Shown in pieces: positions 1,193 to 63,967 of a stretch of 64,000 nt of DNA. How positions within the stretch are numbered: position 1 is the first letter of the stretch; each line of letters begins with the position of its first letter. Origin of the DNA: Thermodesulfobacteriota bacterium (lineage in GTDB: Bacteria > Desulfobacterota_D > UBA1144 > Nemesobacterales > UBA2774); the NCBI GenBank assembly GCA_965216785.1, contig OZ244197.1, forward strand, positions 25,120-89,119, written 5' to 3'. The position numbers were made by a program, and so were the translations under genes. Under the pieces are notes generated by a model. It did no database searches. It was not told where the DNA came from and worked only from the letters and a program-made list of their open reading frames with translations.

Positions 1193-1334
1193 AAAGTCAT
1201 AACCTTCTTCTAATATTGTATGAAAATCTAAAGAGAGCGTTAATGTACCAGATTCTAACTATTTTAAAAGACCACAGAGAAGAGTTCTTGATATAACAAA
1301 AATATCCCGGGTATCGGCAAGCTTTAAGATTTGC

Positions 1335-4631: not shown

Positions 4632-4636
4632 ATTAT

Positions 4637-4999: not shown

Positions 5000-5076
5000 T
5001 TTTTCTCCAGATAGAATGAATTAAAATGAGTTGACCGTACCGGTGGGTCTATGAATATATTTACTAAAGGATAACA

Positions 5077-5508: not shown

Positions 5509-5576
5509 TGATATTCCCCCGGTCTAATTTGGCTACTGCAGAAATTCTATCATCTGAGCACATTAAAATCCAGAAA

Positions 5577-6170: not shown

Positions 6171-6210
6171 TTTATTTCAGCTGCTATAGCTGGTTTTAAG
6201 CAGAGTATTA

Positions 6211-12801: not shown

Positions 12802-12985
12802 ATGTGTCTCACAAAGTTACTTCAGAGGAATTTGTAAAAATTTGAGTTTTAAATTCATGCTTCTCTTATTTTTATCCTTTTGCACTAAATTAGTCTGTCT
12901 GTTTTAAAAAAGAAATACAATACTCATTATTTCCTGAACATTACGAACAAAACGGTTCGGAAACTATTTCCCCCTCATAATGAGT

Positions 12986-13065
12986 ACAGAATGCAGTTTA
13001 AACTCAGCCTCGGTGTTGTACCCATAATCTGTTATTAGTGACCTGCAGAAAAATCAAGTATAATG
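12986..13065. repeat. Direct repeat copy 2 (non-coding remnant of the GT2 3' end)
   Basis: See 7671-7750. Together the two copies bracket the ~5.2 kb segment carrying the methyltransferase and the 1356-aa fusion gene. Confidence 0.6.
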
Positions 13066-13102
13066 AATTCGCATTCTCACCCCTAACAGGCACATATTAT
13101 CA

Positions 13103-16108: not shown

Positions 16109-17020
16109 ATGTACTCTAAATTACCAAACTTTTTCATAGTAGGTGCTGCAAAATCAGGCACAACATCAATTTTTGCATATCTGTCTCAACACCCAGAAAT
16201 TTTTTTTAGCCCTCTTAAAGAGCCTAAGTTCTTTTCTGTCTCAGCAAACACATTTCCTCATAAAGGACCTGGTGATAGTGAAGTTGACAATACTATAATT
16301 AAAGATAAGCACGATTACCTTAATCTGTTTAAAGGTGCTAAAGATGAAAAAGTCATTGGGGAAGCTTCAGCTGATTATTTATATTTCTATAAGATTGCAG
16401 CACCTTTGATATACGAATGCAACCCTAATGCAAAGATACTTATAATTCTGAGAAACCCGGCTGAAAGAGCCTTTTCCGCTTATCGACACATGCTGAAAGA
16501 CAAAAGAGAAAGCCTCTCATTTGAAAACGCCATTGAAGCTGAAGAAAGTAGGATGGACAATAATTATGAGTTCATATGGTTTTACAAAGACGTTGGTCAT
16601 TACTATCACCAAGTCCTGGAATATTTAAAGACTTTCAATAAAGGTTCAGTAAAAATTTGCCTTTTCGAGGATTTAACAAAGAATTCAAGCGAAGTTACAA
16701 GGGAAATTTTAAAGTTCCTTGAAGTTGATGAGTGCTTCTCACCGGATATAAGCGAAAAACATAATGTATCGGAGATAAAACTTAACGAGTCGTTAGACCA
16801 ATTCCTAAGCAGGTATAATCATCCTGTTAAAAATTTGCTTCGCCCCTTATTCCTCAACACTTTAGGTAAAGATAATACAGAAAGATTAGTGAATTATTTC
16901 AAAGGTAAGAATGTTCTTAGAATGAGATCAAAAACGAGGAAATCCCTGATTAATTTATACAGGGATGATATTATAAAACTCCAAGATTTAATAAAGCGTG
17001 ATCTATCGTCTTGGCTTTAA
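16109..17020 (+). CDS. Sulfotransferase (PAPS-dependent, carbohydrate sulfotransferase-like)
   Basis: 5'-PSB loop FIVGAAKSGTTS and 3'-PB motif ILRNPAERAFSAY. 303 aa. Confidence 0.8.
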   Translation: MYSKLPNFFIVGAAKSGTTSIFAYLSQHPEIFFSPLKEPKFFSVSANTFPHKGPGDSEVDNTIIKDKHDYLNLFKGAKDEKVIGEASADYLYFYKIAAPLIYECNPNAKILIILRNPAERAFSAYRHMLKDKRESLSFENAIEAEESRMDNNYEFIWFYKDVGHYYHQVLEYLKTFNKGSVKICLFEDLTKNSSEVTREILKFLEVDECFSPDISEKHNVSEIKLNESLDQFLSRYNHPVKNLLRPLFLNTLGKDNTERLVNYFKGKNVLRMRSKTRKSLINLYRDDIIKLQDLIKRDLSSWL

Positions 17021-21659: not shown

Positions 21660-23429
21660 CTACTGCTCAGGATATAGACTAGGCAGCCTTTCCGATCTAT
21701 AAACTGTCCATCCGTTCATATTCTCGGGATTATCATCCTCTATAGATAGGTCAAAAACCTTCTCAGCCGGTGTTGTATGAGTTACTTCGATTATGCGTGG
21801 TGTGGTTATTGCTGTTGCAATATTATCTGTAGGAACACCTTCAGCATCCTTAGCAACACCTCCGTGAGTGATCAGCACATTACCAGTTACAGGCATATAG
21901 TCCGCATCGCCAATGAAAGGAGCGTAAAGTATTTCATCCGCAAATTCCCCGAATTCCCAAACCTGCTCTATCTCCATGTTGTCCAGATCAAGTGAGTATT
22001 CCACAGCTCTACTGAAGTTTTCTGACGCGGGGACAGTCTCATCAAAAGGACTTGCTTTCAAATTACCGTTATCGTATATCAATATATTTCCGTTAGGCAA
22101 TACCATAGGTGCATGCTGGTGAAATTGCCAAAGGAAATTCAGTCCGATAGGGTCAAAAAGTAAGTCACCAAAAATATCTGTATCCCAGTTAGCATGGGTA
22201 CCTATTATCCAAGACAGGTCTCCAGTTGCTCTGTCGAATTTGATTACAGCGTCTTGGTGTCTCAAGGAGACAATAATAGAATCATCGGATGGATCATATA
22301 TAACGGCATTTCCATGGCTCCAATCCTTGGTTCCTTGCTCGAATTCAGGAAAGGTCGCATTCCAAAAACCTAAAAGGGAATTATATCCTATTCTGAAAGG
22401 GTCCAGCATTTCCAGAATAGACCATTCATTTACAATAGTCCCATCTGTTGAGAGCTCTAAAACAGTATCCCCCGCAACAAAAGCACTCTCAGTCGGGGCT
22501 AACGGATCGGTATCACTAGCAGGAAAATTGTCTATTAAAATTACTTCAACGCCTAGTGTAAGTAAATTGCCATTTGGCATCTCGAACACTTCATGGTGAA
22601 ACACATCAGTATTTACGACAATACTGTCAGGACCTGCCGTACTACTTAACAGTGTATGCCATTGTCTTACAATATCTCCCAACATATTAATTTCAGTAAT
22701 AGTACTATTACTTTCAATAAATAGAATGTTTCCATTTGATATTCGGGTAACATCACCGTAAGCAACATCATCAAACCTTTTGTACCAAACGACATCACCT
22801 TGTGCATTTACAGCTACTAAAAAAGAGCCTAATTCCGTGTTAGCCACACGTGGTCTCAGAGGAAATATCGTAACACCAGGCTCCATCATCTCAGGATTAC
22901 TTGTTACCTCGATCGGGGGGAAACCCTCCGGCAATGGATCGGTGTCTACTAAGATTGGCTGATCAAACTGAGTTTGGTTTCCGAATGCGTCGCTTACAGT
23001 GATCTGAAGCATAAAACTGCCGTCCGGAGTAAAACCTAAAATCGGAAGTGAGTGCTCAATAGCCCGATCATCAAACTCAATTGTCAATGACTCGAATGCG
23101 CCTCTATTTAGAGTTGTAGTAGTTGTTGTAGCTTCGGTGATTGTAACGCTCACAGATGTAGGCTCATCTGTTCCAAGCTCGAGCAGTCCCGCAAGCGGGG
23201 TGTCCGGGTTGGGCGCCAAAGTGAATATAGGCTGGGACGTGAAAACAGGAGCGGTGTTATCATTTTCTATATTAGAAGAGTCACCGGATGCGGCATCTCC
23301 TTCAAACCCATTGAAATTATCGTCACAGCCTGCAGCCAACAGGATTAATGCAAGAACTGGCACTAATACAATGTAACGATTAGATAACCTCAGAATATTA
23401 AAAAAGTGTAATACTCCGTATTGACCCAT
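21660..23429 (-). CDS. Secreted lipoprotein, arylsulfotransferase (ASST)-like beta-propeller
   Basis: Signal peptide plus lipobox LLAAGC. Motifs FHHEVFEMPNGN and DWSHGNAVIYDPSDDSIIVSLRHQDAVIKFD resemble PAPS-independent aryl-sulfate sulfotransferase propellers. Assignment is from remembered motifs only. Confidence 0.45.
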   Translation of the reverse strand: MGQYGVLHFFNILRLSNRYIVLVPVLALILLAAGCDDNFNGFEGDAASGDSSNIENDNTAPVFTSQPIFTLAPNPDTPLAGLLELGTDEPTSVSVTITEATTTTTTLNRGAFESLTIEFDDRAIEHSLPILGFTPDGSFMLQITVSDAFGNQTQFDQPILVDTDPLPEGFPPIEVTSNPEMMEPGVTIFPLRPRVANTELGSFLVAVNAQGDVVWYKRFDDVAYGDVTRISNGNILFIESNSTITEINMLGDIVRQWHTLLSSTAGPDSIVVNTDVFHHEVFEMPNGNLLTLGVEVILIDNFPASDTDPLAPTESAFVAGDTVLELSTDGTIVNEWSILEMLDPFRIGYNSLLGFWNATFPEFEQGTKDWSHGNAVIYDPSDDSIIVSLRHQDAVIKFDRATGDLSWIIGTHANWDTDIFGDLLFDPIGLNFLWQFHQHAPMVLPNGNILIYDNGNLKASPFDETVPASENFSRAVEYSLDLDNMEIEQVWEFGEFADEILYAPFIGDADYMPVTGNVLITHGGVAKDAEGVPTDNIATAITTPRIIEVTHTTPAEKVFDLSIEDDNPENMNGWTVYRSERLPSLYPEQ

Positions 23430-23496: not shown

Positions 23497-23982
23497 TTAT
23501 CTATTTTTCTTAGGCCTGTCCTTCTCTTCTATATACTCACCTATCTTAGTATTTCTTCTGACCGAGGGGGGAAGGTTGGAAAGGTCCGGTTTTGGCATAT
23601 TAGTTGAAAGATCGCTCGTAAAAGCAAAACTAGAGACGACCTTCTCAACTTTCTTAGTGTCGCAAAACGGGCACCTGACTTTATTCTCGTCCTTATCTTC
23701 ATAGATAAGCTCGGAAAAACGATAGTTCTTCCCTAGATTGAAAAACACCAGAGTCGTTCCTTCATTAAGATAAAAATCCAAATCGACAGCGTCTTTATCA
23801 CGCTTACCGTGTTCACCCAAGATTGTTTCTTTCTCCGTATCATAAACTACTACATGATTTATATTGTCATACTTCTTAACCAGCTCGGATACGGTTTTTT
23901 TATTCGCTTTATTAGCAATTGACTTCAAAGAATCATCTACGTTTTTCCTGCATACCGTGCATTCATATTCAAATAGCGGCAT
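23497..23982 (-). CDS. FmdB-like zinc-ribbon protein with ~90-aa insertion (paralog A)
   Basis: MPLFEYECTVC (FmdB-type N-terminal CxxC). The second CPFC pair is ~95 aa later. Lys-rich. Confidence 0.55.
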   Translation of the reverse strand: MPLFEYECTVCRKNVDDSLKSIANKANKKTVSELVKKYDNINHVVVYDTEKETILGEHGKRDKDAVDLDFYLNEGTTLVFFNLGKNYRFSELIYEDKDENKVRCPFCDTKKVEKVVSSFAFTSDLSTNMPKPDLSNLPPSVRRNTKIGEYIEEKDRPKKNR

Positions 23983-24000: not shown

Positions 24001-24504
24001 TTATCTATTGAAATATTGATTCAGATGGTCCTGACCTACCCAATCGTTTCGCTGCTCTTCATCTTTTTGCTGCTTATACTCTAAATGCCATTGGAGCTCG
24101 TCCCCTGGACCGGGCGCCCTTTTACTTTTATCCTCGAATATGGCTTTAAACGTCGAGAACACTCTCTGAAGACCCTTGCCGTCACATATCGGGCACCTGA
24201 GCTTTTTTTCATCCTTCTTGTCGTAAATTAGCTCGCTGAATCTAAAATTCTTGAGCTCAAGATAAAGGACCTTTTTGTTTTCAAGAGTATATTTAAATCT
24301 TCTTAGCGTCCTGCTATCACTTTTTTCGCCCAAGGCGAAAAGGGGCTTTTTCTTCTTCCCTTCTGTTACTTCTATATAAGTGAACCCATCGTTACTTTTC
24401 TTAATCCTGGACGCATTGGTCTTGTTGAGTTTCTCTACAAGGGTGTCAATGTCTCTGTTATACCTCTCTATGCACTCTTCGCATTCATATTCAAATAGCG
24501 GCAT
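24001..24504 (-). CDS. FmdB-like zinc-ribbon protein with insertion (paralog B)
   Basis: MPLFEYECEEC...RFSELIYDKKDEKKLRCPICD. It shares the block RFSELIY[ED]K.DE.K.RCP.CD with paralog A. The two are tandem, 18 nt apart. Confidence 0.55.
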   Translation of the reverse strand: MPLFEYECEECIERYNRDIDTLVEKLNKTNASRIKKSNDGFTYIEVTEGKKKKPLFALGEKSDSRTLRRFKYTLENKKVLYLELKNFRFSELIYDKKDEKKLRCPICDGKGLQRVFSTFKAIFEDKSKRAPGPGDELQWHLEYKQQKDEEQRNDWVGQDHLNQYFNR

Positions 24505-35919: not shown

Positions 35920-36306
35920 ATAAGTATGTACTCCCGATGCCTATTACCCAATACCCTAAACCCACTCCGTATATATTTGAGGACTGCAAATAGAATAACC
36001 GTACCTTAATTCTATTCCAAACTGATTATTAATGATAGTTTTAATTCTCTGAGATTTGGGTAGAATTTACGGTTAGCCAAAGAAAATTGACTAAGCGTTA
36101 TAACTATGATATTAAACTGGATGTATTATTAAATAAGGGTGGCAATTTAGAGATATACCGATATTAAGAAAACGGATATTTAATCATATTTACGAACACC
36201 ATAGCATCGAAAATACATCATATACAATACAGGACTTGGAAGGCCTATTATTAAAAGCCTAAAAGCCGTGTTCTGTAAGTGATAAGACTACCGAAGAAGG
36301 GAGTTT

Positions 36307-37590
36307 TTGATGAGTAAAGAAGAGCTTAGTAACGACGACAAACTAGTGCTTGCGGTCAAAAAAAGGTACCACGATATGCTCGCTGAGGGTGTTGACCCCT
36401 ATGAGTGGGCTTATGCGTGGCGCTCTGAGATTAACCGAGGCGGTTTTAAAGCGGTTGATTTCCTTATGGACGAAATAGTGGATACTGGTAAGTGCGTCGG
36501 GTGCGCAGCCTGTGTGACAATTTGCCCGACCGATGTATTTGACTATAAGGACGAGCACCCTGTGGATACGAGAAAGGACGCATGCGTGCTGTGCGAGCTT
36601 TGCGCAGACGTTTGCCCGGTTCTCAGACCCCTGGATAAGGATCTGCACACACTTTTGGGCTTTAAGCAGCCGGTAATTGACGAGGGGTTCGGCCCTTACA
36701 ACTACGCCGTAATAGCACGGGCAAAGAATAAGGAGTTTTTGGAGAAGGGACAGGACGGAGGAGTAACGAGCGCGCTTTTGGTGCATCTGCTGGAGCAGGG
36801 CGCCATAAACGGTGCGGTGCTCGGAGACGTGCTTCCGGAAAACCCTCAGGTAGGCGTGCAGAAACTCGCCACCACTTCAGAGGAAATAGTTCAGTGCAGC
36901 GGCTCGCGATACACATATTCGCCCAACACTGTGGCATTGACCGAGGCTATGAGACAGGACGTGCGTCCTCTGGCAGTAGTTGGCGTGCCTTGTCAGGTGG
37001 ACGGAGTTCGTCAGCAGCAGTATAGCAGCATACGACTTGAAGTGGCCAAATGGTATCAGAAAAACGTAAGCCTGGTAATCGGGCTGTATTGCTCTGAGAG
37101 CTTTACTCACGAGCACATTACATATATAGCGAAAGAGCTTGATGTTGAGCCAAAAGATATTGTTAGAGTGAACGTAAAGGGCAAGGTAATAATCGAGCTC
37201 CGCGACGGCAGGGAAATAATTATGAAGCTCAAGGACTTTCATCCTTTCGCGCGGCCCGCATGCCTTTATTGTCTTGACTATTCCGCTGAGCACGCTGATA
37301 TCGGAGTGGGAGGTATAGGGCTTGACGGATGGACATTTGTAGCTGTCCGCACAGAAGCGGGGCACAAGGCGTGGCAGGCGGGAGTGGATGCGGATCTTTT
37401 TGAAATCATGGAAGTAGATGAAGTACCAAAGGCAAAGAGCCTGCTCATAAGGCTCTCTGAAATGAAAAGAAATAAACCCCTCCCTGCACTTATGCCTACG
37501 CTGCAGGAGAGGATTGAAATGGGCAACACAAACCCTAAGACTTTCTATAAAGATTACAATCCAAGCGATGGAGGAAAAAACGGTAAATGA
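36307..37590 (+). CDS. Ferredoxin-domain + coenzyme F420 hydrogenase/dehydrogenase beta-subunit-like (FrhB/FdhB family) flavoprotein
   Basis: Two 4Fe-4S motifs, CVGCAACVTICP and CVLCELCADVCP, followed by the FrhB-type N and C domains. Its stop overlaps the start of the next gene (ATGA). Confidence 0.65.
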   Translation: MMSKEELSNDDKLVLAVKKRYHDMLAEGVDPYEWAYAWRSEINRGGFKAVDFLMDEIVDTGKCVGCAACVTICPTDVFDYKDEHPVDTRKDACVLCELCADVCPVLRPLDKDLHTLLGFKQPVIDEGFGPYNYAVIARAKNKEFLEKGQDGGVTSALLVHLLEQGAINGAVLGDVLPENPQVGVQKLATTSEEIVQCSGSRYTYSPNTVALTEAMRQDVRPLAVVGVPCQVDGVRQQQYSSIRLEVAKWYQKNVSLVIGLYCSESFTHEHITYIAKELDVEPKDIVRVNVKGKVIIELRDGREIIMKLKDFHPFARPACLYCLDYSAEHADIGVGGIGLDGWTFVAVRTEAGHKAWQAGVDADLFEIMEVDEVPKAKSLLIRLSEMKRNKPLPALMPTLQERIEMGNTNPKTFYKDYNPSDGGKNGK

Positions 37591-39392
37591 GCTCCAATAA
37601 CGGCCAACCCGTACTCGAAGATATAAGCGTGATCGTAGCCGGACAGGGAGGTGACGGTTCACTTACAGTTATTACAATGCTTGCAGACCTGTTCCGGAAC
37701 AGCGGGCTTAACGTATACACGGAAAGAGACGTGCTCTCGCGTATCCGCGGCGGACACGCGGCGGCAACGATGAGAGCGTTTACCGGCCACCGCTACTGCA
37801 TAGGGAGCAAGATCACTCTCCTAGTGGCGCTTGACGAAGAAGCGGTAACGAAAAATGCGCGTCATCTGGACTCTGACAGTGTGATAGTGTTCGATGACTC
37901 AAGCGGCCCTCTACCCGACGGATTATTACCCAAGGGCGCCAAGCTCTATGCGGCCCCTTTCAATAGAATCGCTATGCGTACGATGAGACGCGAGTTATAC
38001 AAAAACAGTATCGCTTTCGGAATGGTGGGGCGTCTGCTAGGACTTGAAGACGAGCACATGCGCGAGACTTTCGTAAAGCGCTTTGAAAGACGTGGGCAGG
38101 TAATTTTAGACTATAACTTAGAAGCACTCGGCCTTGGACTGCACATGGCGGACGAGCTGGATATTAAGGAAGGACACGGACTTTATAGAATAGAGCGCAC
38201 GGACCCTGAGGAGCACCTCTTAATAATGGGGAACGAATCCGTGGCTTTCGGATTCATGGCCGCAGGCGGAAGATTCTTCACCGGCTATCCGATAACGCCC
38301 TCTACAGAGGTGCTTGAGACGCTGCAGAAATGGCTGCCAAAGTGCGGGGGAGTGGTAAGACAGACTGAGGATGAGCTTGCTGGCATAAATATGGCCATAG
38401 GCGCTGCGCTCACAGGCGCAAGGACTATGACCGCCACATCAGGACCCGGGTTTTCACTCATGCAGGAAGGAGTGGGACATGCCGGCTCTGCTGAAGTACC
38501 TATTGTCGTTGTGGACTGTCAGCGCTCGGGACCGAGCACCGGAATGCCTACAAGACCGGAGCAGAGCGATCTGAACCTTATGATTTTTGGAGGTCACGGT
38601 GATTTCCCGAGATTCGTTCTAGCCCCGGGACACCCGGAGGACTGTTTTTATCTCACTGTAGACGCTACAAACCTGGCAGATAAATATCAGCTGCCCGTGT
38701 TCATAGCAATGGACCAGGCGCTTTCACAGAACATTGCAACCGTAAAGCCCTTCGACCTGGACGAAATAACTGTTACACTAGGGAAGAGACTTAGCGCGGA
38801 GGATGTTGCAAAACTGGATACTTATAAACGCTACAGTTTCTCTGAGGACAATATCTCGGCGTTCGCCGCACCGGGAACACCGGGTGGAATGTCGCTTGTG
38901 ACCGGAAACGAGCACGATGAGTTCGGCCTCGTATCAACAGACCCCGATAACCGTTTGCGTATGATGGATAAACGAATGAATAAGATGGAAGACGCCAAAA
39001 AAGACCTTCCCAAAGGAAGGCTTTACGGGGATCAGGAATCTAAAATCGGGTTTATAGGCATAGGAATGATGTACGGCGTCATTTTAGAAGCCATGGAGAG
39101 GCTCGAACAAGAAGGAATCCACACAAAATATTTACAGCCAAGAACAATATGGCCTATGCTGGATGAGACAATAGATTTTATAAACGACTGTGACCGCGTA
39201 TATGTAATCGACTTAAACGCCGGGGCTCAGCTGGCGCGTCTATTTATGCACCAGGGAGCTGAGAAGAATAAGATAATAAGCATTACCAGATACGACGGGC
39301 TGCCTTACAGACCTGGTATACTGGTTAAACAGATACTTGAAGAAGAAGCTAAACTCTTAAACGGCCAAGGTAAGGAGGCAAAGCTGTTATGA
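37587..39392 (+). CDS. korA: 2-oxoacid:ferredoxin oxidoreductase alpha(/gamma-fused) subunit
   Basis: 601 aa. N-terminal gamma-like domain IVAGQGGDGS..., then POR/KOR alpha domains I-III. Confidence 0.8.
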   Translation: MSSNNGQPVLEDISVIVAGQGGDGSLTVITMLADLFRNSGLNVYTERDVLSRIRGGHAAATMRAFTGHRYCIGSKITLLVALDEEAVTKNARHLDSDSVIVFDDSSGPLPDGLLPKGAKLYAAPFNRIAMRTMRRELYKNSIAFGMVGRLLGLEDEHMRETFVKRFERRGQVILDYNLEALGLGLHMADELDIKEGHGLYRIERTDPEEHLLIMGNESVAFGFMAAGGRFFTGYPITPSTEVLETLQKWLPKCGGVVRQTEDELAGINMAIGAALTGARTMTATSGPGFSLMQEGVGHAGSAEVPIVVVDCQRSGPSTGMPTRPEQSDLNLMIFGGHGDFPRFVLAPGHPEDCFYLTVDATNLADKYQLPVFIAMDQALSQNIATVKPFDLDEITVTLGKRLSAEDVAKLDTYKRYSFSEDNISAFAAPGTPGGMSLVTGNEHDEFGLVSTDPDNRLRMMDKRMNKMEDAKKDLPKGRLYGDQESKIGFIGIGMMYGVILEAMERLEQEGIHTKYLQPRTIWPMLDETIDFINDCDRVYVIDLNAGAQLARLFMHQGAEKNKIISITRYDGLPYRPGILVKQILEEEAKLLNGQGKEAKLL

Positions 39393-40267
39393 CCACAGAG
39401 CCCAAGACTAAAACCTTTACACCCGCAAGACCTATATGGTGCGCTGGATGCGGAGACTTCGCTGTACAGGGAGTGCTTGAGAAATCACTCAAGAACATGG
39501 GTATACCGCCTCATAAATTTATGTTCCTGGCCGGTATAGGCTGTTCAGGCACTATCCAGAATAACGTTAAGTGCTACGGCTACCACGCGCTCCACGGAAG
39601 GGTATTGCCCGCTTCGATCGGAGCAAAGCTCGCAAACCCAGATTTAACCGTTGTTGCCGCGGGCGGGGACGGAGACGGATTCGCGATAGGCGCAGGCCAC
39701 CTGGTTCATACGTTTAAGAGTAACCCCAGCATTACATATATAGTGATGAATAACAGCAATTACGGCCTCACAAAGGGCCAGGCTTCACCTACAAGCCCCA
39801 CAGGGTACAGAGACAACCCGGAAACGGGACTGGACTCGATACTTCTGGGTCTAAGTTTTCCCTCAACGACATTTTTAGCGCGCGGTTTCAGCGGCAACGC
39901 CGCTCAGCTGGAGAGCCTTATGATGGCGGCGCTCGAGCACACGGAGGCGGGAAGAGGGTTTGCTTTCCTCGAAGTGCTCTCCCCATGCGTCACCTATTAC
40001 GACACGCACAGGGAATGGCGCGCCAAGGTATATAACATAAACGAGGAAGAGGGATTTGACACTTCGGACAGGGCCAATGCTTTCAAGAGAGTTCTGGAGC
40101 TTAAAGAGGAAAAACGCATCCCTATAGGTCTTATTTACAAAGGCGAGAACACTTCGCTAGAGAAGCTTATAGTGAACGAAAATGAAACCTACCCGGCTTT
40201 GCAGGAGATCGGCCACACGGATCATAGAGCCGAGTATGATAAGTTCATAAAGGCTTATCTGGGATAA
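39389..40267 (+). CDS. korB: 2-oxoacid:ferredoxin oxidoreductase beta (TPP-binding) subunit
   Basis: WCAGCGDF, then GIGCSG and the TPP/Mg site AAGGDGDGFAIG. Overlaps korA by 4 nt. Confidence 0.85.
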   Translation: MTTEPKTKTFTPARPIWCAGCGDFAVQGVLEKSLKNMGIPPHKFMFLAGIGCSGTIQNNVKCYGYHALHGRVLPASIGAKLANPDLTVVAAGGDGDGFAIGAGHLVHTFKSNPSITYIVMNNSNYGLTKGQASPTSPTGYRDNPETGLDSILLGLSFPSTTFLARGFSGNAAQLESLMMAALEHTEAGRGFAFLEVLSPCVTYYDTHREWRAKVYNINEEEGFDTSDRANAFKRVLELKEEKRIPIGLIYKGENTSLEKLIVNENETYPALQEIGHTDHRAEYDKFIKAYLG

Positions 40268-40586
40268 CTAATCGGCTACACTGCCCTTTATTCAATTTTT
40301 AGGAAATCCCAGGGTGTTTTTGTACCTAATTCACTCTTTTCCTAGACAAAATCCTAGTTGAATCTATAATGTCTAGTACCGTATCGGAAATGTGTATTTC
40401 AGCGTGAAATCCATAACGTTCGATTCGTCCAAAGATTTTGTTATTACAATAGGAAATATGGGGATTTTACGGGCCGTTTGAGATTGCGGGTCATATATTC
40501 TTATGCTAAAATTATAAGCGAAAATTGATGGATAAATATATCTCTCCCCAAAAAGCAACTCATAGTAATTCAACAGGATTAAAAAT

Positions 40587-43400
40587 ATGAATATTACCGA
40601 TATGTTTCACGGACCTAACTCGGGCTATATACTCGAGCTTTACGACCGTTATCTGGAAGACCCAAGCTCCGTAGACTCGGAAACAAGAGCGATTTTCGAT
40701 AACTGGAAGCCCGAATCCGAAGACGGAGCGCACGTAGAAGCCCGTCCGCAGGACATGGAGAAAATTGTGGGCGCGGCTAACCTTGCCCTGGCAATCAGGG
40801 CATTTGGTCATCTGGACGCTAAAATCAATCCTCTGGGAATCAAATGCTCAGGAGACCCCTCGCTTGACCCCGCGACACACAAAATAACGGAAGAGGACCT
40901 TTTTCAGCTGCCTTCAAGCCTGATCGGAGGCCCGATAGCAGAAACCACGACCAACGCTGCGGAGGCGATAGATAAGCTCCGCTCTGTATACTCGTCATCA
41001 GTGGGCTATGACTATTACCACCTGCACTCTATTGAAGAAAGAAGGTGGTTAAGACATGCGGCGGAATCTGGGACATTCAGACCCCCTAATGATCCTATTA
41101 ATGAGAAGAGACTCCTCGAGAGCCTTACTCAGACAGAGGTACTTGAGAGGTTCCTTCATAGAATATTCCCCGGAAAATTCCGTTTTTCCATAGAAGGCGT
41201 GGACACTCTGATCCCTATGTTTAACGAGATCGTGGGTCTGGCCGCAGAGTCTGACATCTATCATATTCTTATAGGGATGGCTCACCGCGGACGCCTGAAC
41301 GTCATGCACCACGTCATGAACAAACCCTACAAGGGGACACTGATTAAGTTCAAAGACCCTGTGCTTCAGAGAGACTTCAGGGACTATATGGGCTGGACAG
41401 GTGACGTAAAGTACCACGAAGGAGCGAGGCACGCTATTAAAAAAGGCAGGCCGATCGACATGGAAATCACGCTTGCCCCGAACCCCAGCCATCTTGAGTC
41501 GGTAAACCCGGTAGTAGAAGGTATGACGCGCGCGGCGGGAACGAAAGCGGATAGGCCCGGGGCGCCTGAGTTTGACCGCACTGTCTCGATGCCAATAATC
41601 GTTCACGGCGACGCTGCGTTCCCGGGGCAGGGAATAGTGTCGGAGACACTTAATCTGTCTCGTCTTCCGGGATACAGCACTGGCGGGACAATACATATAA
41701 TTACCAATAATCAGCTCGGTTATACCACACTGCCAAGGGACAGCAGAAGCACTCTTTACGCAAGCGATCTGGCAAAGGGGTTTGAGATACCGATAGTGCA
41801 CGTAAACGCGGATGACCCTGAGGCATGCATCGAATCCTCGAGGCTCGCCTTCGCGTATGTAGAGGAATTTCACAAAGACTTTCTGATTGATCTGGTCGGC
41901 TACAGGCGGCACGGCCACAACGAGGCCGATGAGCCAGCTTTCACACAGCCAAAATTATACGAGATTGTAGATAAGCATCCTACGGTTAGAGAGATCTGGT
42001 CAAACACCCTAATTGAAAGGGGCATTATAGATAGTGAAGAATCTGAAGAAATATTAAACAAATACAATGAGCAGATGCATAAAGACTTTGAATCGCTCGC
42101 GCCTGAAGACATACCAGAGGAGTCTCAGTCTGAGAGGCCGCCTGCGGGCGCGGCACAAAAGGTGAAGACATCTGTATCGGCAGGGGCGCTCAGGGAACTG
42201 AACCAATCGCTGCTTAAAGTACCGCCGGATTTTAAAATAAACCCCAAATTAAAGCGCGCAAGAGAACGCTGGGCGAATGCACTCGAAGGCACAGATAGCA
42301 AGACAGTGGATTGGGCGATGGCAGAGCAGCTCGCGTTTGCCTCTATACTGGCTGACGGCACTCCGATACGGCTGACGGGGCAGGATTGCGAGCGCGGCAC
42401 ATTCAGTCACCGCCACGCTGTGCTTCATGACTTTATGAGCGGAGAGTCTTATAACCCTCTCCAAAATATCCCTCAGGCGAAAGCGGCTTTTGAAATCTAC
42501 AACAGCCCGCTCACAGAGAACGCGTGCATCGGCTTTGAGTACGGCTACAACATACATAAGCCCGAATCACTCGTAATCTGGGAAGCTCAGTACGGTGATT
42601 TTATAAACGGCGCGCAGACTATCCTTGACGAATACCTGGTATCGGCAAGAGCCAAATGGGGCCAGACGCCTTCTCTTGTACTACTTTTACCGCACGCATA
42701 CGAGGGACAGGGCCCTGATCACTCATCAGGCAGAATGGGTAGGTTCTTAGATTCGGCTGCTGAAATAAATATGCGCGTTGCCAACTGCACGACTTCGGCT
42801 CAATACTTTCATTTACTTAGACGTCAGGCCGGAGTGCTGGATATAGACCCGCTTCCGCTGATTATTCTGACTCCCAAGAGCCTGCTTAGAAACTCATTAA
42901 TATTCTCATCCTTGAAAGAGCTGACGCAAGGAACTTGGCAGCCGGTTATCGATGACGATATGGATGATAAACAGGCTAAAAAGGCCAAGCGTCTGATACT
43001 GTGTAGCGGAAAGGTATACTGGGACCTGGTATCGAGTGAATACTATGAGAAAAACAAGGGGGATATCGCGATTACCAGGGTGGAGCAACTCTATCCCATA
43101 CCGACGGTCATGATTCGTAAGGTGTTTAGCAGATATCATAATCTTAAAGAAGTCGTATGGCTTCAGGAAGAGCCTGAAACGATGGGGGCCTGGATGTTTA
43201 TGTTCCCGTTCTTCAGAAAACTGATCGACGGCAGGTTTCCGCTGCACTACATGGGCAGGAAGCGTAACTCGAGCCCCGCTGAAGGGTCGCTGTCGATGCA
43301 CAGAGTAAATCAGCAGGCTCTGGTCCAGCAAGCATTCATGCTGGACAAAGAACTGCCCAATCTGGATGAACTTGGTATTACGTGGGTAAAAAATGTATAA
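40587..43400 (+). CDS. sucA: 2-oxoglutarate dehydrogenase E1 component
   Basis: 937 aa. N-terminus [30 protein letters not shown], with TPP and transketolase-like domains. Confidence 0.9.
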
Positions 43401-43417
43401 ATTATCGGAGAGAAAAC

Positions 43418-44686
43418 ATGTCGATTGATATTAAAGTTCCTGAGCTTGGAGAATCCGTAGTCGAGGCGACCGTAATCAGATGGTTCAAGTCCGTAGGAGA
43501 CCCCGTTAAAATAGGTGAGGCTCTCGTCGAGCTTGAAACCGAGAAGGCCAATTTTGAGGTTGCCGCTGAGAGACAGGGAGTACTGACTGATATTGTTAAA
43601 GGGGATGATGAGGACGTTGAGGTCGGAGACGTAATCGGGGTGATGGAGGAAGGCGCCGCAGCACAAAGCGGTGCGGAAGCAAAGGCAGAAGCTCATGAAG
43701 CCGAGGAAGTTAAAATTGAGGTGAATGAGGAAATAGAAGAAGTTACCGAAAGCGAGAAAGTGACGCCGGTTGCAAGACGTATAGCGGAAGAGCACGGAAT
43801 CGATATAAACCTGGTAGCCGGAACCGGGCATGGAAACCGCGTGACTAAGGAAGATGTTGAAAACTTTATCGCAAATCAAGGGAAAGGGGAACCTCGGGCA
43901 GAGGAAGTGTCAAACGCCGAGCCGATACGTAAAGATGTAGCACCGATTCCGGCAGAGCAGGCCCCGCAGATCACATTAGGAAGAGACGTAAGGGAAGAGC
44001 GCATCAAGATGTCCCGCAGGCGCAGAACCATTGCGCGCCGCATGCTAGAGGCCAAGCAGACGACAGCCATGCTTACGACGTTTAACGAGATAGACATGGG
44101 CGCTGTGATGGAGCTGAGGAAGCGAAGAAAAGAAATATTTAAGGAAAAATACGGTGTTGGCCTCGGGCTTAATTCGTTTTTTGTTAAAGCCGCCATCGGA
44201 GCGCTGAAAGAGTTCCCTCAGATAAACGCAGAGATCGACGGCGACGACATGATTATTAAGCATTATTATGACATCGGGATAGCGATCGGAGCCTCTGAAG
44301 GGCTTGTCGTACCTGTGCTCAGAAACGCTGACAGTATGACGTTTGCCGCAATAGAAAAAGCTATTAAAGAGTTCGCTCAAAAATCTGAAGACAACACGCT
44401 GTCGCTGGAGGACATAATGGGCGGCACGTTTACCATCACTAACGGAGGCGTATTCGGCTCAATGATGAGCACGCCCATATTAAACCCTCCGCAGGTCGGG
44501 ATATTGGGGCTCCATAAGATAGAGCCAAGACCGGTTGTAATTAACGGACAAATTGAAATTAGATCGATGATGTACGTTGCCCTCAGCTATGACCACAGGA
44601 TAGTGGACGGACGAGAGGCGGTGCAGTTCCTGGTGAGGTTAAAGGAGCTTATCGAGGATCCGGAGTCGCTGCTTCTAGAAGGGTAA
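43418..44686 (+). CDS. sucB: Dihydrolipoyllysine-residue succinyltransferase (E2)
   Basis: Lipoyl domain [10 protein letters not shown]...ETEKA, an Ala/Glu linker, an E3-binding domain and the catalytic [11 protein letters not shown]. Start set at MSIDIK, 6 nt after GGAGAG. Confidence 0.9.
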
Positions 44687-53781: not shown

Positions 53782-54576
53782 ATGAGGATATTGATATTTC
53801 TGAGTGTTTTATTTAGCGGTTTATACTTTTCACAGGATGTAACTGCCGAGGGTATAGTATTCTGCCAGAGTAAAATCTTTAAAGTCGTAAGATACAGGGG
53901 CGGCGAGCCCGGAAGCTGTAAACGATTTGAAAATGAGATTGTTATAACTACCGAAATCGGTGAGGCTGGACCTCCCGGGCCTCAGGGACTAGCTGGACCT
54001 GCAGGACCTCAAGGTGATCCTGGACCGGATGGACCAGCCGGACCTGAGGGGCCACAAGGACCGGCAGGACCTATGGGAGATGTCGGACCGGAGGGCCCAC
54101 CAGGTGATATAGACCAAGGTCTTTTGGATGATCTTCAGGAACAAATTGATATTCTAGCAAGTAAGGCATGTGGAGATGGAGAATTAGATATAATTTTTGG
54201 TGAAGAGTGTGATGATGGAAACGAATTAGACCAAGACAGTTGTTCATCTGATTGCTTAATCACAGGCCCAAGTGGTCCTTTTTGCGGTAATAGAACAATT
54301 GAAGATCCTGAAGTATGTGATGCCGATATAATTCTGACTAGTTGTATAGACTTGGGATTTGTAACAGGAGACCTAAGATGTTCGGACGACTGCCTATCTT
54401 TTGATACATCAGGTTGTCTTGACTCAGTATGCGGCAATAACAACCAGGAAAGTGGTGAAGTTTGTGATGGAACAGATTTGGTTGGTATAGATTGTACTGA
54501 CTTTGGATTCACAGGAGGTTCCTTAGCATGCGGTTTTGACTGTGTTAGTTTTAATACATCTAATTGTTCTAATTGA
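53782..54576 (+). CDS. Secreted collagen-like (G-X-Y) / Myxococcus-type cysteine-rich repeat protein
   Basis: Signal peptide. About 17 uninterrupted GXY triplets ([50 protein letters not shown]). Four cysteine-rich repeats of the CG[DN]G..E.GE.CDDGN / C.D.GF..G.L.C..DC.SF.TS.C type. Confidence 0.75.
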
Positions 54577-59844: not shown

Positions 59845-62505
59845 ATGCAGCGTTCCGCGGTAGAAAAAAATAAGATCATCGGCTCAAGCGCAAAGCTTTC
59901 TGAGGTCGTGGACTTAATTTTGAAAATCGCCGATACACCGACCAACATACTTATCACTGGTGAAAGCGGCACAGGAAAGGAGCTTGCCGCAAGTCTACTG
60001 CATGAAAAGAGCAGCCGCTCAGATAAACCTTTTATGGACATCAATTGTGCGGCTATACCCGAGACGCTTCTGGAGAGTGAGCTCTTCGGTATTGAAAAAG
60101 GGGTCGCGACGGGGGTTGAGAGAAGAGAGGGTAAAATCGAGCTATCCGCAGGGGGGAGCCTTTTCCTTGACGAAATAGGCGACATGAGCCTCGGCGCTCA
60201 GGCAAAGCTGCTCAGGGTCCTTCAGGAAAGGAGCCTTAAAAGAGTAGGCGGCAAAAGCGACATCGCCGTTGACCTGAGGATAATCGCAGCCACGAACAAA
60301 GACCTTCTTTCGGAGATAAAAAAGGGGAAATTCAGAGAGGATCTTTATTACAGGATCAACGAAGTACATATTAAGATGCCTTCCCTGAGGGAAATACGTG
60401 AGGATATACCCAGTTTGTCCGAGCATTTTCTTCATTCACTCTGTCATGAGCTCAATATGAATACACTCCGGTTTAGTGATTCAGTCCTGGACCGACTATC
60501 GAGCTACAGCTGGCCCGGAAACATCAGAGAGCTTAAAAACGAGGTTAAAAGGGCAGCGCTCCTGGCCGATGGCCATATAATAGAAGAAAGAGATTTATCT
60601 CCAGATATTTTGAATTTCTTTAAAAACAAGGATGCCAGTCAAGGTCTTGTAAGTGAAGCAACTTCGCTACCTCGAGCAGTAGAAGAGCTCGAAATCCAGA
60701 TGATAAAGCAAGCCCTAAAATCATGTCAGGGAAACAGGGTAAAGGCCTCTCAGATGCTTGGAATATCAAGGCAGGGACTAATAAAAAAGATAAGCAGATA
60801 CAGGATAGATCAGGGTAGCTCTCAGAAAAAGAAAATTTCAGACCGATTGCTCAAGTCAAGCAAAAGATCGTTTGTCGGAAGAGCAAATGAGATTAAAGAA
60901 ATAAAGGATCTAATCAAGTCCAAGAAGTCTACTTACTATGTCTTATTTATTCACGGCATAGGAGGGATTGGGAAGACAAGTATGGTTAAGGAACTTTTAA
61001 ATTCCTTGGACGCTAAGGTTAGTACAATTTACCTTGATTGTAGAGACATAGAGCCGACGGAGAACGGTTTTCTAACATCGCTGGGTAATGAACTTAATCT
61101 CAAGAGCACCAGAATTACAGTAGAGCGTGTTTTAAAGAGTTTGGAGAAGAGAAAGGAAAGAACACTACTGGTACTCGACACCTATGAGACTTTCGGACTT
61201 ATGGATACCTGGCTCAGAAAGACTTTTATACCATCTCTACCTGAGAATTTTCTTACAATAATCATCGGAAGACACCCGCCAAATAATTCATGGTTTACAA
61301 GCTCAGGCCTTGGGACTCTTATTAAGAGTATTGAGCTTGAGGAGCTTTCTTATGAGGACGCGATCAACTTCTTAATACTCCGTGGGCTTACGTCAGAAGA
61401 AGCAGAAAAGACCTATTCATTCGCCCGGGGGCACCCGATGGCTCTTGAGCTAGCAGCAAATTCGGTATCATCAAAACCCACTCGAGACATTTCATACAAA
61501 TCATTCCCTAACATTATTCATCAGCTGACGCAGGATTTCCTGCTGGGTCTAGATAAGAAGACCAGAAAGACGCTCGAGAGCCTCTCTTTAGTGAGGCGCT
61601 ATGACGACACCCTACTGAAACACTTACTAAACGAAGACTACGAAGAAGGTATCTTTGACAATCTCTTAGAGCTCCCATTCGTCAGCCTAACAGGAGAAGG
61701 ATGCTTGATACACGATATAGTAAGGGAAACTATAGCTCGTGAGCTATCACTCCGTGATCCGAAGAGGTATAAGGATTCGAAAAAAGCCGCATGGGTATAT
61801 CTGAATGAACAATCGCTTGCGAAGCACGGTGAATCACTCTGGCAAGCTACTGCCGATTTGCTATACACTATAGAAAACCCGGTTGTAAGGGATGCTTTCT
61901 TTCCTAAAGGTGCAATGGGTTATGTCGTCGAGCCACTATCTCATGAGGATAAAGAGCATGTAATTGATATTGTGCGTGAGTCCGAATCGGGTGAACCTGC
62001 CGATATAATTGAGAACTGGCTCACATATTATCCGGGCAGTTTCAGTGTTGTTAAAGATATAACCGGTGAAGTTGAGGCGTTCTTTATTTTATGCGAGCCT
62101 AATGAGATCGATAGGAGCCCTTTATCTGAGGATAAAATACTCGACGTTTGGTTTAAGCACTTGGAATCTAATCCTCTAGATTCCACAGACAAAGCGCTAT
62201 TTCTAAGGAGGTGGCTCAGTAGAGGACATGGTGAAGGTCTTTGTCCTGCACAAGGAGCTTCATGGCTCGACGTTAAGAGAAACTACATGGAGCTTAGACC
62301 TAAATTAAAAAGGCTTTATACAACACTGACTGATTTAGAAAACTATAAGCCTGTCGTATTACCGTTAGGTTTTTCTCTTTTAGATAGTTCAGAGATTGAG
62401 CTCGAAGAAACAACTTACTATTCCGCCATTATTGATTTCGGACCGGACAGCGTCGACGGATGGCTCAGAAAACTTATCGGTCTTGAGCTTGGTATTGGTC
62501 AGTAA
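59845..62505 (+). CDS. Fusion: sigma-54 enhancer-binding AAA+ core + Fis-type HTH + NB-ARC/STAND NTPase + C-terminal domain of unknown function
   Basis: aa 10-245 are an EBP AAA+ core (GESGTGKE, ESELFGIEKG-GVATGV, GGSLFLDEIGDMS, SWPGNIRELKN). HTH at ~aa 285-315. P-loop FVGRANEIKEI...IHGIGGIGKTSM, Walker B LLVLDTYE and GHPMAL at aa 330-560. It has no N-terminal receiver, GAF or PAS domain. Confidence 0.8.
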   Translation: MQRSAVEKNKIIGSSAKLSEVVDLILKIADTPTNILITGESGTGKELAASLLHEKSSRSDKPFMDINCAAIPETLLESELFGIEKGVATGVERREGKIELSAGGSLFLDEIGDMSLGAQAKLLRVLQERSLKRVGGKSDIAVDLRIIAATNKDLLSEIKKGKFREDLYYRINEVHIKMPSLREIREDIPSLSEHFLHSLCHELNMNTLRFSDSVLDRLSSYSWPGNIRELKNEVKRAALLADGHIIEERDLSPDILNFFKNKDASQGLVSEATSLPRAVEELEIQMIKQALKSCQGNRVKASQMLGISRQGLIKKISRYRIDQGSSQKKKISDRLLKSSKRSFVGRANEIKEIKDLIKSKKSTYYVLFIHGIGGIGKTSMVKELLNSLDAKVSTIYLDCRDIEPTENGFLTSLGNELNLKSTRITVERVLKSLEKRKERTLLVLDTYETFGLMDTWLRKTFIPSLPENFLTIIIGRHPPNNSWFTSSGLGTLIKSIELEELSYEDAINFLILRGLTSEEAEKTYSFARGHPMALELAANSVSSKPTRDISYKSFPNIIHQLTQDFLLGLDKKTRKTLESLSLVRRYDDTLLKHLLNEDYEEGIFDNLLELPFVSLTGEGCLIHDIVRETIARELSLRDPKRYKDSKKAAWVYLNEQSLAKHGESLWQATADLLYTIENPVVRDAFFPKGAMGYVVEPLSHEDKEHVIDIVRESESGEPADIIENWLTYYPGSFSVVKDITGEVEAFFILCEPNEIDRSPLSEDKILDVWFKHLESNPLDSTDKALFLRRWLSRGHGEGLCPAQGASWLDVKRNYMELRPKLKRLYTTLTDLENYKPVVLPLGFSLLDSSEIELEETTYYSAIIDFGPDSVDGWLRKLIGLELGIGQ

Positions 62506-62911: not shown

Positions 62912-63967
62912 TCAATACCGAGACATAATATTCTCATGAAAACTATTCATAGCTTTTATAGGATCAGGCACAGGGGCTATCATTATCTGATTTATACCCT
63001 GTGACTCCATCCTTTTAATCGTGTCGATGATCTCGCTGCTGGTTCCAACGAGAACTGATGCTTCTATCATCTCCGGCGTGAGCACATCGTTAAATTCCTC
63101 GTTCCAGAAAAAATAGTTACTGTAGTAGGCAAGGTGTCTTCTTTCGGGGTTGTCCAGGTCTGAAGGATACGCGTTTGTGAATTTCATGACCCCGTCCCTT
63201 AAGCTCTCAGGAAGCGGCTCGCCCGGAGTTGTACCTGTGTTTTTCCCGTGGTTTTCAAGTGACTTCGCGAGTATATTCAGACATACAGAGACCATAGGTC
63301 CCAGCTGATGTCTGACTGATTCAGTTTCAAGAGATTCGCCTTCATCCAGAATATAAAAAGCGCTAAGAACCATGGTATATATGTCCTCAGGGTTTCTTCC
63401 TGATTTCTTCGCGCCCTTTCTGATTCGCTCCATACAATAATCTATGTACTCCTCGTCTATCGCCCCAAGAAGCATTACACCGTCCGCAAGCTCTCCGGCA
63501 AGCTCAAGAGTCTTTGGTCCGCTTCCGGCCATAAATATTGGTATTTCGTCTTTGGTATTTATAAAGCCCATATCTGGACTCAGGAATTTAACAGGTCTCT
63601 TCCTCTCCTGAGATAAATACTTATCCGGGCCTTCACTGTATTCCGCCTCTTCACCCTTGAGCATTTTTCTATATATGCCAACGTCATTCCGAAGCTCATC
63701 AAGCTTAGCTATCGGCATACCCCAGGCCCGTCTCGCGGTGTTACCGGTACCGATCCCGAGAACACACCTGCCGGGCGCAAGCTCGTTTAGAGTAGCCATG
63801 GCTCTTGCGGTAACTGGAGTCATCCTGGCGCGCGGGCATGTGACGCCAGGGCCAAGCTTTATTTTTTTTGTATTGGTGGCGCAAAGGGTTAACGTTTCAA
63901 AAACATCGCTCCCTATGCTGTCATACGGCATAAAATGTGTGAACCCCTTATCTTCGCCATGGGCCAC
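62912..63967 (-). CDS. Luciferase-like monooxygenase (LLM-class flavin/F420-dependent oxidoreductase)
   Basis: TIM-barrel LLM family with an LGIGTGN loop. 351 aa. Confidence 0.75.
   Translation of the reverse strand: MAHGEDKGFTHFMPYDSIGSDVFETLTLCATNTKKIKLGPGVTCPRARMTPVTARAMATLNELAPGRCVLGIGTGNTARRAWGMPIAKLDELRNDVGIYRKMLKGEEAEYSEGPDKYLSQERKRPVKFLSPDMGFINTKDEIPIFMAGSGPKTLELAGELADGVMLLGAIDEEYIDYCMERIRKGAKKSGRNPEDIYTMVLSAFYILDEGESLETESVRHQLGPMVSVCLNILAKSLENHGKNTGTTPGEPLPESLRDGVMKFTNAYPSDLDNPERRHLAYYSNYFFWNEEFNDVLTPEMIEASVLVGTSSEIIDTIKRMESQGINQIMIAPVPDPIKAMNSFHENIMSRY

Follow-up and report, generated by a model that had tools for sequence, protein, structure and literature searches.

The closest described counterparts of the locus reported here come from archaea and from two-subunit bacterial and archaeal oxidoreductases. 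In the ethane-oxidizing archaeon Ca. Ethanoperedens thermophilum, the subunits ACDS zeta (8RIU chain B) and FwdI (8RJA chain E) anchor via a ferredoxin domain, and CODH and Fwd then reduce coenzyme F420 instead of ferredoxin, as was shown biochemically (Lemaire, Wegener and Wagner 2024, PMC11493965). FrhB itself (3ZFS, 4OMF, 6QGR, 9R51) pairs with hydrogenase subunits and has no ferredoxin domain, a part that Frh carries on FrhG. For bacteria, a 2021 review of F420 (PMC8498797) names only Fno (using NADPH) and Fgd (using glucose-6-phosphate) as F420 reducers; it lists FrhB-type F420 reducers for archaea only, makes no mention of 2-oxoacids, and states that no non-actinobacterial system has been studied experimentally. 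The 2-oxoacid:ferredoxin oxidoreductases (OFORs) of the (ab)2 type, natively without a delta subunit or domain V, use external ferredoxin (Yan et al. 2016), and MmOGOR of Magnetococcus marinus (6N2N/6N2O) and StOFOR1/2 of Sulfolobus tokodaii (5B46-5B48) are free ferredoxin users. Here, we analyzed a 64,000-nucleotide stretch of DNA from a Thermodesulfobacteriota bacterium (contig OZ244197.1, positions 25,120 to 89,119 of the forward strand; hereafter, the window), in which a gene for an FrhB-like protein with its own ferredoxin domain (gene 1) is directly followed by the alpha and beta genes of an OFOR. Comparative analysis leads us to favor, with moderate confidence, the reading that this trio encodes one enzyme, a 2-oxoacid:coenzyme F420 oxidoreductase.

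An earlier note on this DNA had described gene 1 as combining two 4Fe-4S motifs with the FrhB/FdhB fold, and this description was borne out by the Pfam search, in which Fer4 and both FrhB_FdhB halves were matched (FrhB_FdhB_N, PF04422, E 1e-19 and 70.9 bits against a cut-off of 22; FrhB_FdhB_C, PF04432, E 4e-35 and 121.2 bits against 23.3). The two CxxCxxCxxxCP motifs occupy residues 62-73 and 92-103. In a PDB sequence search, the best match was FrhB (3zfs_C, E 1.3e-41), and 8riu_B and 8rja_E scored about 1e-40 in alignments that take in the ferredoxin domain (query residues 52-372 and 49-389, respectively). The sulfite reductase that depends on F420 (Fsr) also ranked among the best relatives, and the match to HCAR, a relative that does not use F420, was far weaker (E 2.5e-9). 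The fold ranking agreed with the sequence ranking: Foldseek placed a model of the FrhB core nearest to FrhB (9r51_B, E 6e-22, target-normalized TM 0.82), with the ACDS zeta/FwdI subunits at E of about 2e-20 to 5e-20. The top relatives by sequence and by fold, namely FrhB, Fsr, ACDS zeta and FwdI, all react with F420. The AlphaFold2 model behind this comparison was built from a 19-sequence alignment and has a mean predicted local distance difference test score (pLDDT) of 61, which drops below 50 in the N-terminus and the ferredoxin domain; it was used for the FrhB-core fold match only and not for the N- and C-terminal extensions.

Gene 1 thus resembles ACDS zeta and FwdI in having an N-terminal 2x[4Fe-4S] domain, an FrhB-type [4Fe-4S]/FAD reductase and a C-terminal extension, and in being encoded with catalytic subunits. 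The logic would also be shared, since an extra subunit would divert a ferredoxin-coupled, CO2-releasing enzyme to F420. Unlike those subunits, to which it is 27-28% identical, its partner is a thiamine pyrophosphate (TPP)-dependent OFOR and not CODH or Fwd, its hosts are bacteria of mostly oxic habitats and not anaerobic archaea, and its family has a conserved 55-residue N-terminal extension and a C-terminal tail of its own. Features held in common with FrhB (31-32% identity) are the fold, the four cysteines of the cluster, the FAD motifs, and the turn and loop at the F420 site.

Evidence that the three genes belong together came from their relatives. When one genome was scanned for each GTDB species, at least 162 relatives of gene 1 emerged, from which the best 80 loci, all in metagenome-assembled genomes (MAGs), were kept; with four further metagenome contigs these made 84 related loci, or 85 sequences including the window. 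Gene order and overlaps were counted by tblastn, and spurious antisense open reading frames (ORFs) in high-GC loci were disregarded. The best 80 loci came from Dadabacteria, Bipolaricaulota, Gamma- and Alphaproteobacteria, Acidimicrobiia, Thermoleophilia/Gaiellales, Myxococcota, Chloroflexota and a Poribacteria-labelled bin. As far as the contigs reach, each of the 84 related loci has the order FrhB-like, alpha, beta with the genes directly adjoining, and this order spans about eight phylum- or class-level groups, an arrangement far beyond chance. The ATGA overlaps that the earlier note had read at both junctions are present in the window, where each joins a stop to the next start, and were kept in about 90% of the sequences: a 4-nt NTGA overlap joins the FrhB-like and alpha genes in 76/85 sequences, and alpha and beta in 73/78. 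Furthermore, the pairwise identities of the trio proteins co-vary (r = 0.84-0.95). The window organism belongs to Candidatus Dadabacteria: its trio proteins share 96-97% identity with their counterparts in the closest relative, the MAG UBA2774 (L016), and the first Dadabacteria loci are syntenic with the window.

The family is sharply bounded. Members of the FrhB-like clade are at least about 57% identical to each other, and a HMMER search against 1.84 billion cluster representatives returned one full-length representative at 576 bits, after which identity falls to 42-47%. None of the four inspected next relatives in this range (P0123-P0126) has an OFOR beside it; three are stand-alone genes, two of these on archaeal-looking contigs, and one lies with FAD oxidoreductases and a UbiD-type decarboxylase. 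Because all 84 loci are linked to an OFOR while the four next relatives are not, OFOR linkage is a defining property of this FrhB-like subfamily.

This synteny also bears on the source annotation of gene 1, 'coenzyme F420 hydrogenase subunit beta', according to which it would belong, as beta subunit, to an F420-reducing hydrogenase or an F420H2 dehydrogenase and stand beside an OFOR by chance. FrhB and FpoF are indeed its top NCBIfam matches, but every equivalog cut-off was missed (FrhB model TIGR03289, 181 bits against 331.5; NF006807, 209 against 269; FpoF model, 136 against 475), and neither the window nor the neighborhoods of the relatives showed genes for large or small hydrogenase subunits or for Fpo. 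With the linkage in every related locus, the synteny effectively refutes this explanation, to which we give almost no credence. Three other identities for gene 1 were considered and rejected: that of a sulfite reductase or Fsr, as it has no siroheme domain and is just 426 aa long; that of a glutamate-synthase-type or NAD(P)-binding reductase, as no such domain was detected; and that of a hydrogenase or Fpo subunit, as the partner genes were not seen. The earlier note had held that clustering with sulfite reductase or with polyferredoxins unrelated to OFOR would speak against its view; gene 1 has no sulfite-reductase domain, and all members of its clade are OFOR-linked.

We next compared the cofactor sites with those of FrhB, whose residues at the cluster, FAD and F420 sites have been assigned (Mills et al. 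2013, PMC3591093), transferring positions through the 3zfs_C sequence alignment and counting conservation over the 85 sequences. The [4Fe-4S] ligands Cys104/134/192/195 of FrhB correspond to C228/C261/C318/C321 of the window protein, the QDGG at the start of the FAD-site helix to Q148-D-G-G151, and K75-Y76 of the FAD-site K/R-Y loop to R200-Y201; all of these are invariant in 84/85 sequences. At the F420 site, the GKGK turn is represented by K290-G291-K/R292, with the first Gly deleted, and S209-V210 of the small-residue loop (Methanothermobacter numbering) by G335-I336, a conservative substitution. Taken together, the twelve cysteines, QDGG, R200-Y201, K290-G291-K/R292 and G334-G335-I336-G337 show no or hardly any variation among 84-85 sequences. 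At the level of motifs, the subunit therefore carries the predicted F420 site of the FrhB/FdhB family. Two segments absent from FrhB, residues 31-50 (EWAYAWRSE.NRGGFKAVD) and 391-400 (LPALMPTLQE), are as conserved as the cofactor motifs, from which we infer a role in docking.

The conservation of the translational coupling speaks for a complex of fixed stoichiometry, as the earlier note had proposed from the overlaps in the window alone, and the conserved order and overlaps would fit such a complex. Alternatively, the products might not associate stably: the OFOR would reduce free ferredoxin, and the FrhB-like protein would be a co-expressed, soluble ferredoxin:F420 oxidoreductase, a role reportedly played by the soluble FpoF of Methanosarcina. 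The closest relatives outside the clade, being mostly stand-alone genes, are in keeping with this, as is the normal use of external ferredoxin by (ab)2-type OFORs (Yan et al. 2016). Several observations make it rather improbable. The 4-nt overlaps are kept at both junctions in about 90% of the loci and OFOR linkage in all of them; the subunit has its own 2x[4Fe-4S] domain, along with conserved, family-specific N- and C-terminal segments that resemble docking elements; no ferredoxin gene is conserved near the trio; and the homologous subunit of the solved CODH complex is docked via its ferredoxin domain (PMC11493965).

The next relatives are of some interest in themselves. The nearest ones without OFOR linkage, at 44-47% identity, are stand-alone genes in L085 (1873-3060), L088 (8001-9203) and L090 (8001-9173); L088 and L090 look archaeal from their Cdc6, NurA and proteasome neighbors, and L085 has no such markers. 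These genes might encode free ferredoxin:F420 oxidoreductases. In L087, the gene for a 42%-identical ferredoxin+FrhB protein with an extra 135-residue N-terminus (3529-5076; neighbors 158-6532) stands between those for two FAD-dependent oxidoreductases and for a UbiD-type decarboxylase, and the protein may be a reductase module plugged into another partner enzyme.

Evidence on the acceptor came from the genes around the trio. Clustering of the flanking ORFs of all loci revealed no universally conserved neighbor. Eight loci from Alpha- and Gammaproteobacteria and Actinomycetota, however, have genes of F420 biosynthesis abutting the trio, and the cof/fbiC genes take at least five different arrangements there. 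In L068 and L070, the order LLM, LLM, FrhB-like, alpha, beta, cofE, cofD, cofC, fbiC runs along one strand with touching coordinates. In L074, cofE lies divergent upstream of the trio with cofD and fbiC downstream; in L080 and L036, cof genes are divergent and upstream; and in the actinomycetotal loci L063, L064 and L072, cofE is directly upstream with cofC and fbiC nearby. The products pass their NCBIfam cut-offs (FbiC/CofGH 1102 against 1018 bits, CofD 280 against 257, CofE 260 against 181, CofC 151 against 105). In L025 (Bipolaricaulota), L048 and L070, the trio is flanked by F420-dependent LLM oxidoreductases scoring above cut-off, and weaker LLM matches lie beside it in about six further loci. 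That differing arrangements in different lineages converge on F420 genes is hard to explain unless F420 is the cofactor of the module. The earlier note had raised a deazaflavin as one possible acceptor, and gene neighborhood, motif conservation and structural relatives all lend weight to that suggestion. For the window organism, the case for F420 is indirect: its subunit shares 58-63% identity, and the same site motifs, with the subunits in the F420-linked loci, and Dadabacteria are listed among the phyla encoding F420 biosynthesis (PMC8498797).

Two side observations concern F420 in the hosts. In the window, a luciferase-like (Bac_luciferase) oxidoreductase gene (62912-63967, minus strand) has only F420-dependent families (Mer and F420-LLM subfamilies) as its best NCBIfam matches, all below cut-off; the profile alignment begins at position 22-32, so that the gene may in fact start nearer the end of the window or past it. 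This gene is a weak hint, from profile similarity, of F420 use by the host. Separately, the LLM, cof and fbiC products of L068 (labelled Candidatus Poribacteria) and L070 (labelled Acidiferrobacteraceae) are 91-94% identical, and one of the two bins is probably taxonomically mis-assigned or contaminated.

Several points weigh against an F420-reducing enzyme. A locus-level scan found no F420 biosynthesis genes in the 64-kb window or in any of the 24 Dadabacteria loci, and about 65 of the 84 loci have no F420-related neighbor. FrhB-fold proteins such as HCAR act on other substrates at the flavin. Since the subunit falls below the FrhB and FpoF cut-offs, it is, judged by these scores, not an ortholog of any characterized F420 enzyme; the model of gene 1 is poor, and the substrate pocket of the OFOR family, described below, matches no characterized OFOR. 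All but the last two of these points would also be accounted for if the same complex existed but its flavin, in Dadabacteria and perhaps in most hosts, donated electrons to NAD(P)+, quinone, free FO or another flavin. OFOR cores combined with a flavoprotein that serves a two-electron hydride carrier reportedly exist in KorABC of Azoarcus evansii (2-oxoglutarate:NADP+) and the NAD+-dependent PadEFGHI (phenylglyoxylate), which would be like the trio in concept; their flavoproteins are said to bind pyridine nucleotide and not to have the FrhB fold, and the PadF and PadG models gave weak, sub-threshold matches only. The high identity of the Dadabacteria protein to the F420-linked ones, the family-wide invariance of the F420-site motifs and the reported F420 biosynthesis in Dadabacteria argue against another acceptor. 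The earlier note had also allowed for transfer to NAD(P), which the searches did not support, as neither Pfam nor NCBIfam detected an NAD(P)- or nucleotide-binding domain in gene 1. We consider a different acceptor unlikely, although it is the most plausible of the alternatives, and F420 the probable acceptor in the window organism.

The OFOR core itself was placed by family models and solved relatives. The alpha protein passes TIGR03710 (2-oxoacid:acceptor oxidoreductase alpha) with 592 bits against a cut-off of 482.75, and its best solved relative is the Magnetococcus OGOR (6n2n_A, E 2e-111). The YPITP motif (Y234-P-I-T-P238) and the carboxylate-binding Arg (R313) are invariant in 77/77 sequences. 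The beta protein, just under TIGR02177 (231.7 bits against 261.9), has its TPP domain in PF02775, with PF12367, and is equally close to the broad-specificity Sulfolobus enzymes and to OGOR (5b46_B, E 6e-47; 6n2n_B, E 4e-46). Its cysteines 18, 21, 52 and 200 would hold a single proximal [4Fe-4S] cluster; the first three are invariant in 65/65 sequences, and C200 was seen in the window protein. By domain composition, alpha/beta is an (ab)2-type OFOR with a fused gamma+alpha subunit and without delta/domain V, the ORF list showing no separate small ferredoxin gene in the trio operon, and it shares with MmOGOR and StOFOR1/2 the two-subunit core, the fused gamma-alpha, YPITP, the Arg and the single beta [4Fe-4S]. 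Unlike those enzymes, it has a translationally coupled reductase gene and different pocket residues. The earlier note had the FrhB-like subunit replacing the usual delta-ferredoxin, a view that does not fit an enzyme type natively without delta; for the same reason, the subunit would instead add the equivalent of an intramolecular ferredoxin together with a reductase.

In the Sulfolobus StOFOR, five residues surround the substrate side chain, and mutation of K49b or D468a in StOFOR1 abolishes 2-oxoglutarate but not pyruvate activity (Yan et al. 2016). The broad-specificity StOFOR1 has S41a, T349a, D468a, K49b and L123b at these positions, and MmOGOR, specific for 2-oxoglutarate, has A, T, L, R and L, by alignment only. 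The corresponding residues of the window family are S51, T318, N441 (in 76/77 sequences), T or S at position 55 (39 and 26 sequences, respectively) and L127. The 2-oxoglutarate pocket is thus not reproduced, as T/S stands in place of K49b and N in place of D468a, and neither 2-oxoglutarate-specific NCBIfam model was reached (PRK09627, 246 bits against 579; PRK09628, 130 against 364). As the pocket signature is conserved across the family, it suggests one conserved specificity, for which pyruvate, other small 2-oxoacids and 2-oxoglutarate are all possible. No substrate could be assigned from the NCBIfam equivalogs, of which none passed its cut-off, from the pocket signature, which is unique, or from the adjacency to sucAB described below, which is limited to Dadabacteria.

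For the 2-oxoacid:F420 oxidoreductase that we favor, the following scheme can be proposed. The catalytic core would be an (ab)2-type OFOR whose alpha and beta subunits bind the 2-oxoacid, CoA, TPP and one [4Fe-4S]. The reductase would dock on this core, probably via its ferredoxin domain, and the N-terminal extension and C-terminal tail may help. Electrons would then pass from the 2-oxoacid through a TPP radical to the beta [4Fe-4S], the two ferredoxin-domain clusters, the [4Fe-4S] of the FrhB core, FAD and finally F420, two one-electron steps being gathered on the flavin and handed to F420 as a hydride. The net reaction would be 2-oxoacid + CoA + F420 -> acyl-CoA + CO2 + F420H2. The E0' of F420 is about -340 mV and that of the 2-oxoacid couple about -500 mV; because F420 is so much more positive, oxidative decarboxylation would be strongly favored. 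The earlier note had envisaged a reversible, ferredoxin-linked route to acyl-CoA beside the oxidative one of sucAB, which is unlikely if F420 as acceptor biases the reaction toward decarboxylation. Operation in reverse, as an F420H2-driven 2-oxoacid synthase catalyzing reductive carboxylation, might be considered on the grounds that OFORs are reversible in principle and that the closest solved alpha belongs to the reverse tricarboxylic acid (TCA) cycle OGOR of Magnetococcus. We regard it as very improbable: by established redox potentials, a couple near -500 mV is out of reach for F420H2, at about -340 mV, unless there is bifurcation, whereas the subunit offers a single flavin and lacks a second acceptor site; the hosts are mostly of heterotrophic, aerobic lineages, and no other reverse-TCA genes were seen in the neighborhoods.

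The features of the locus are collected in Table 1. The start of the FrhB-like gene is likelier to be the ATG at 36310 than the TTG at 36307, since the GGAG of the ribosome-binding site (RBS) ends 6 nt 5' of this ATG and the homologs start with MS(K/N)EE. A 390-bp AT-rich intergenic region separates the trio operon from divergent ABC-transporter genes on the minus strand.

Table 1. Features of the trio locus and the adjacent sucAB genes (window coordinates; residue numbers refer to the FrhB-like subunit).
Feature	Position	Strand	Remarks
RBS, purine-rich, GAAGAAGGGAG	36293..36303	+	Read directly from the sequence; precedes ATG at 36310
FrhB-like F420-reductase-type subunit, 426 aa	36310..37590	+	Pfam Fer4, FrhB_FdhB_N, FrhB_FdhB_C
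Family-specific N-terminal extension	residues 1-55, 36310-36474	+	Without FrhB equivalent
2x[4Fe-4S] ferredoxin domain	residues 56-106, 36475-36627	+	Pfam Fer4 dicluster, residues 56-104
FrhB core, one [4Fe-4S] + FAD (predicted)	residues 126-390, 36685-37479	+	Pfam FrhB_FdhB_N/C
Conserved C-terminal tail	residues 391-426, 37480-37587	+	Family alignment
OFOR alpha, 601 aa, fused gamma+alpha, domains III-I-II	37587..39392	+	TIGR03710; Pfam POR, POR_N
OFOR beta, 292 aa	39389..40267	+	Pfam TPP_enzyme_C, PFO_beta_C
Spacer beta to sucA, 319 bp	40268..40586	+	Sigma-70-like site inside
sucA, 2-oxoglutarate dehydrogenase E1, 937 aa	40587..43400	+	NF006914; neighbor, outside the conserved module
sucB, dihydrolipoyllysine succinyltransferase E2, 422 aa from ATG 43418 (alternative start 43382)	43418..44686	+	NF004309; neighbor gene

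Downstream of the trio, sucA and sucB match their NCBIfam equivalogs above cut-off (1085 bits against 764 and 558 against 449, respectively), and SucB has the Pfam domains Biotin_lipoyl, E3_binding and 2-oxoacid_dh. The earlier note had placed sucA about 320 bp beyond beta, in agreement with the measured spacer, and had read the trio as immediately upstream of sucAB. The adjacency is real in the window, but it is not that of a shared module, as sucAB follows the trio in 20/24 Dadabacteria loci and in 0/60 others. The best sigma-70-like site of the region (TAGACA-16-TATAAT, 40343-40370, 11/12 match) lies in the spacer, no terminator-like hairpin was found there, and the spacer is probably the sucAB promoter region. 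In L016 (UBA2774), a 403-aa lipoprotein-like pentapeptide-repeat gene on the minus strand (12033-13244) separates beta from sucA. Given the restriction to Dadabacteria, the promoter-like spacer and this opposite-strand gene, we consider the adjacency to be lineage-specific and sucAB to be probably a separate transcription unit, not co-transcribed with the trio. The adjacency is compatible with a loose "2-oxoacid oxidation" neighborhood. No lpd (E3) gene turned up when the window ORFs of 150 aa or more were annotated, a set that left aside a few antisense ORFs nested in annotated genes.

In one marine gammaproteobacterial group (L027, L029, L032, L033, L039, L043 and L082-L084), the trio is preceded by genes for IleRS, MlaC, XdhC-like and MocA-like proteins and a protein of about 400 aa without a family, and followed by genes for a metal-dependent hydrolase (PF10118), SOI and SDR, with no evident link to the module.

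Elsewhere in the window, a low-GC (0.36-0.44) polysaccharide cluster surrounds a gene at 8731-12801 (minus strand) for a 1356-aa protein in which a polysaccharide pyruvyl transferase domain is fused to two GT2 glycosyltransferase domains; the cluster also holds a Wzm/Wzt-like ABC exporter (13103-14597), more glycosyltransferases, a sulfotransferase (16109-17020) and an arylsulfotransferase (21660-23429). Two adjacent minus-strand ORFs of 161 and 167 aa (23497-23982 and 24001-24504), for each of which a weak N-terminal zinc ribbon is the sole family match, may be tandem paralogs. On the plus strand, a collagen-triple-helix-repeat protein gene (53782-54576) is followed by one for a 1123-aa protein (region to 58036) whose partial match to TOMM-system kinase/cyclase fusions stays below threshold (313 bits against 706). 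The 886-aa product of 59845-62505 (plus strand) has a sigma-54 activator AAA+ module as its first ~325 residues, an unusual layout for an enhancer-binding protein, and no family match was reported for the remaining ~560 residues.

Beyond Actinobacteria, bacterial F420 reduction is largely unexplained, and it is here that the trio gains its interest. No report of OFOR genes coupled to an FrhB-like gene, nor of this F420-reducing route in bacteria, turned up in the full-text literature searched. Whether the trio represents an unrecognized, widespread bacterial class of three-subunit 2-oxoacid:F420 oxidoreductases, spread over uncultured, largely aerobic lineages such as Dadabacteria, marine Gammaproteobacteria, Acidimicrobiia and Chloroflexota, which would be a third bacterial route of F420 reduction beside Fno and Fgd and the first bacterial plug-in F420 reductase, a principle otherwise known only from ethane-oxidizing archaea, we judge to be evenly balanced. 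Such an enzyme would be like Fno and Fgd in its role, the supply of F420H2 to F420H2-dependent reductases, with an entirely different fold, cofactors and electron donor. Through it, central carbon metabolism would directly supply the F420H2 pool without a free low-potential ferredoxin, in mostly aerobic lineages, so that F420H2 supply would be tied directly to pyruvate or TCA-cycle flux. The retention of an "anaerobic-type" OFOR by aerobes would then be explained, since the electrons would never exit as autoxidizable ferredoxin. The reading would also correct the annotation "F420 hydrogenase beta subunit" in bacterial MAGs, which is sometimes taken as a sign of hydrogen metabolism, and that of korAB genes read as ferredoxin-linked or reversible KOR. 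F420H2 could be regenerated from cheap 2-oxoacids for biocatalysis and, if the reading holds, the modular "reductase plug-in" principle would extend from archaeal C1 enzymes to bacterial TPP enzymes.

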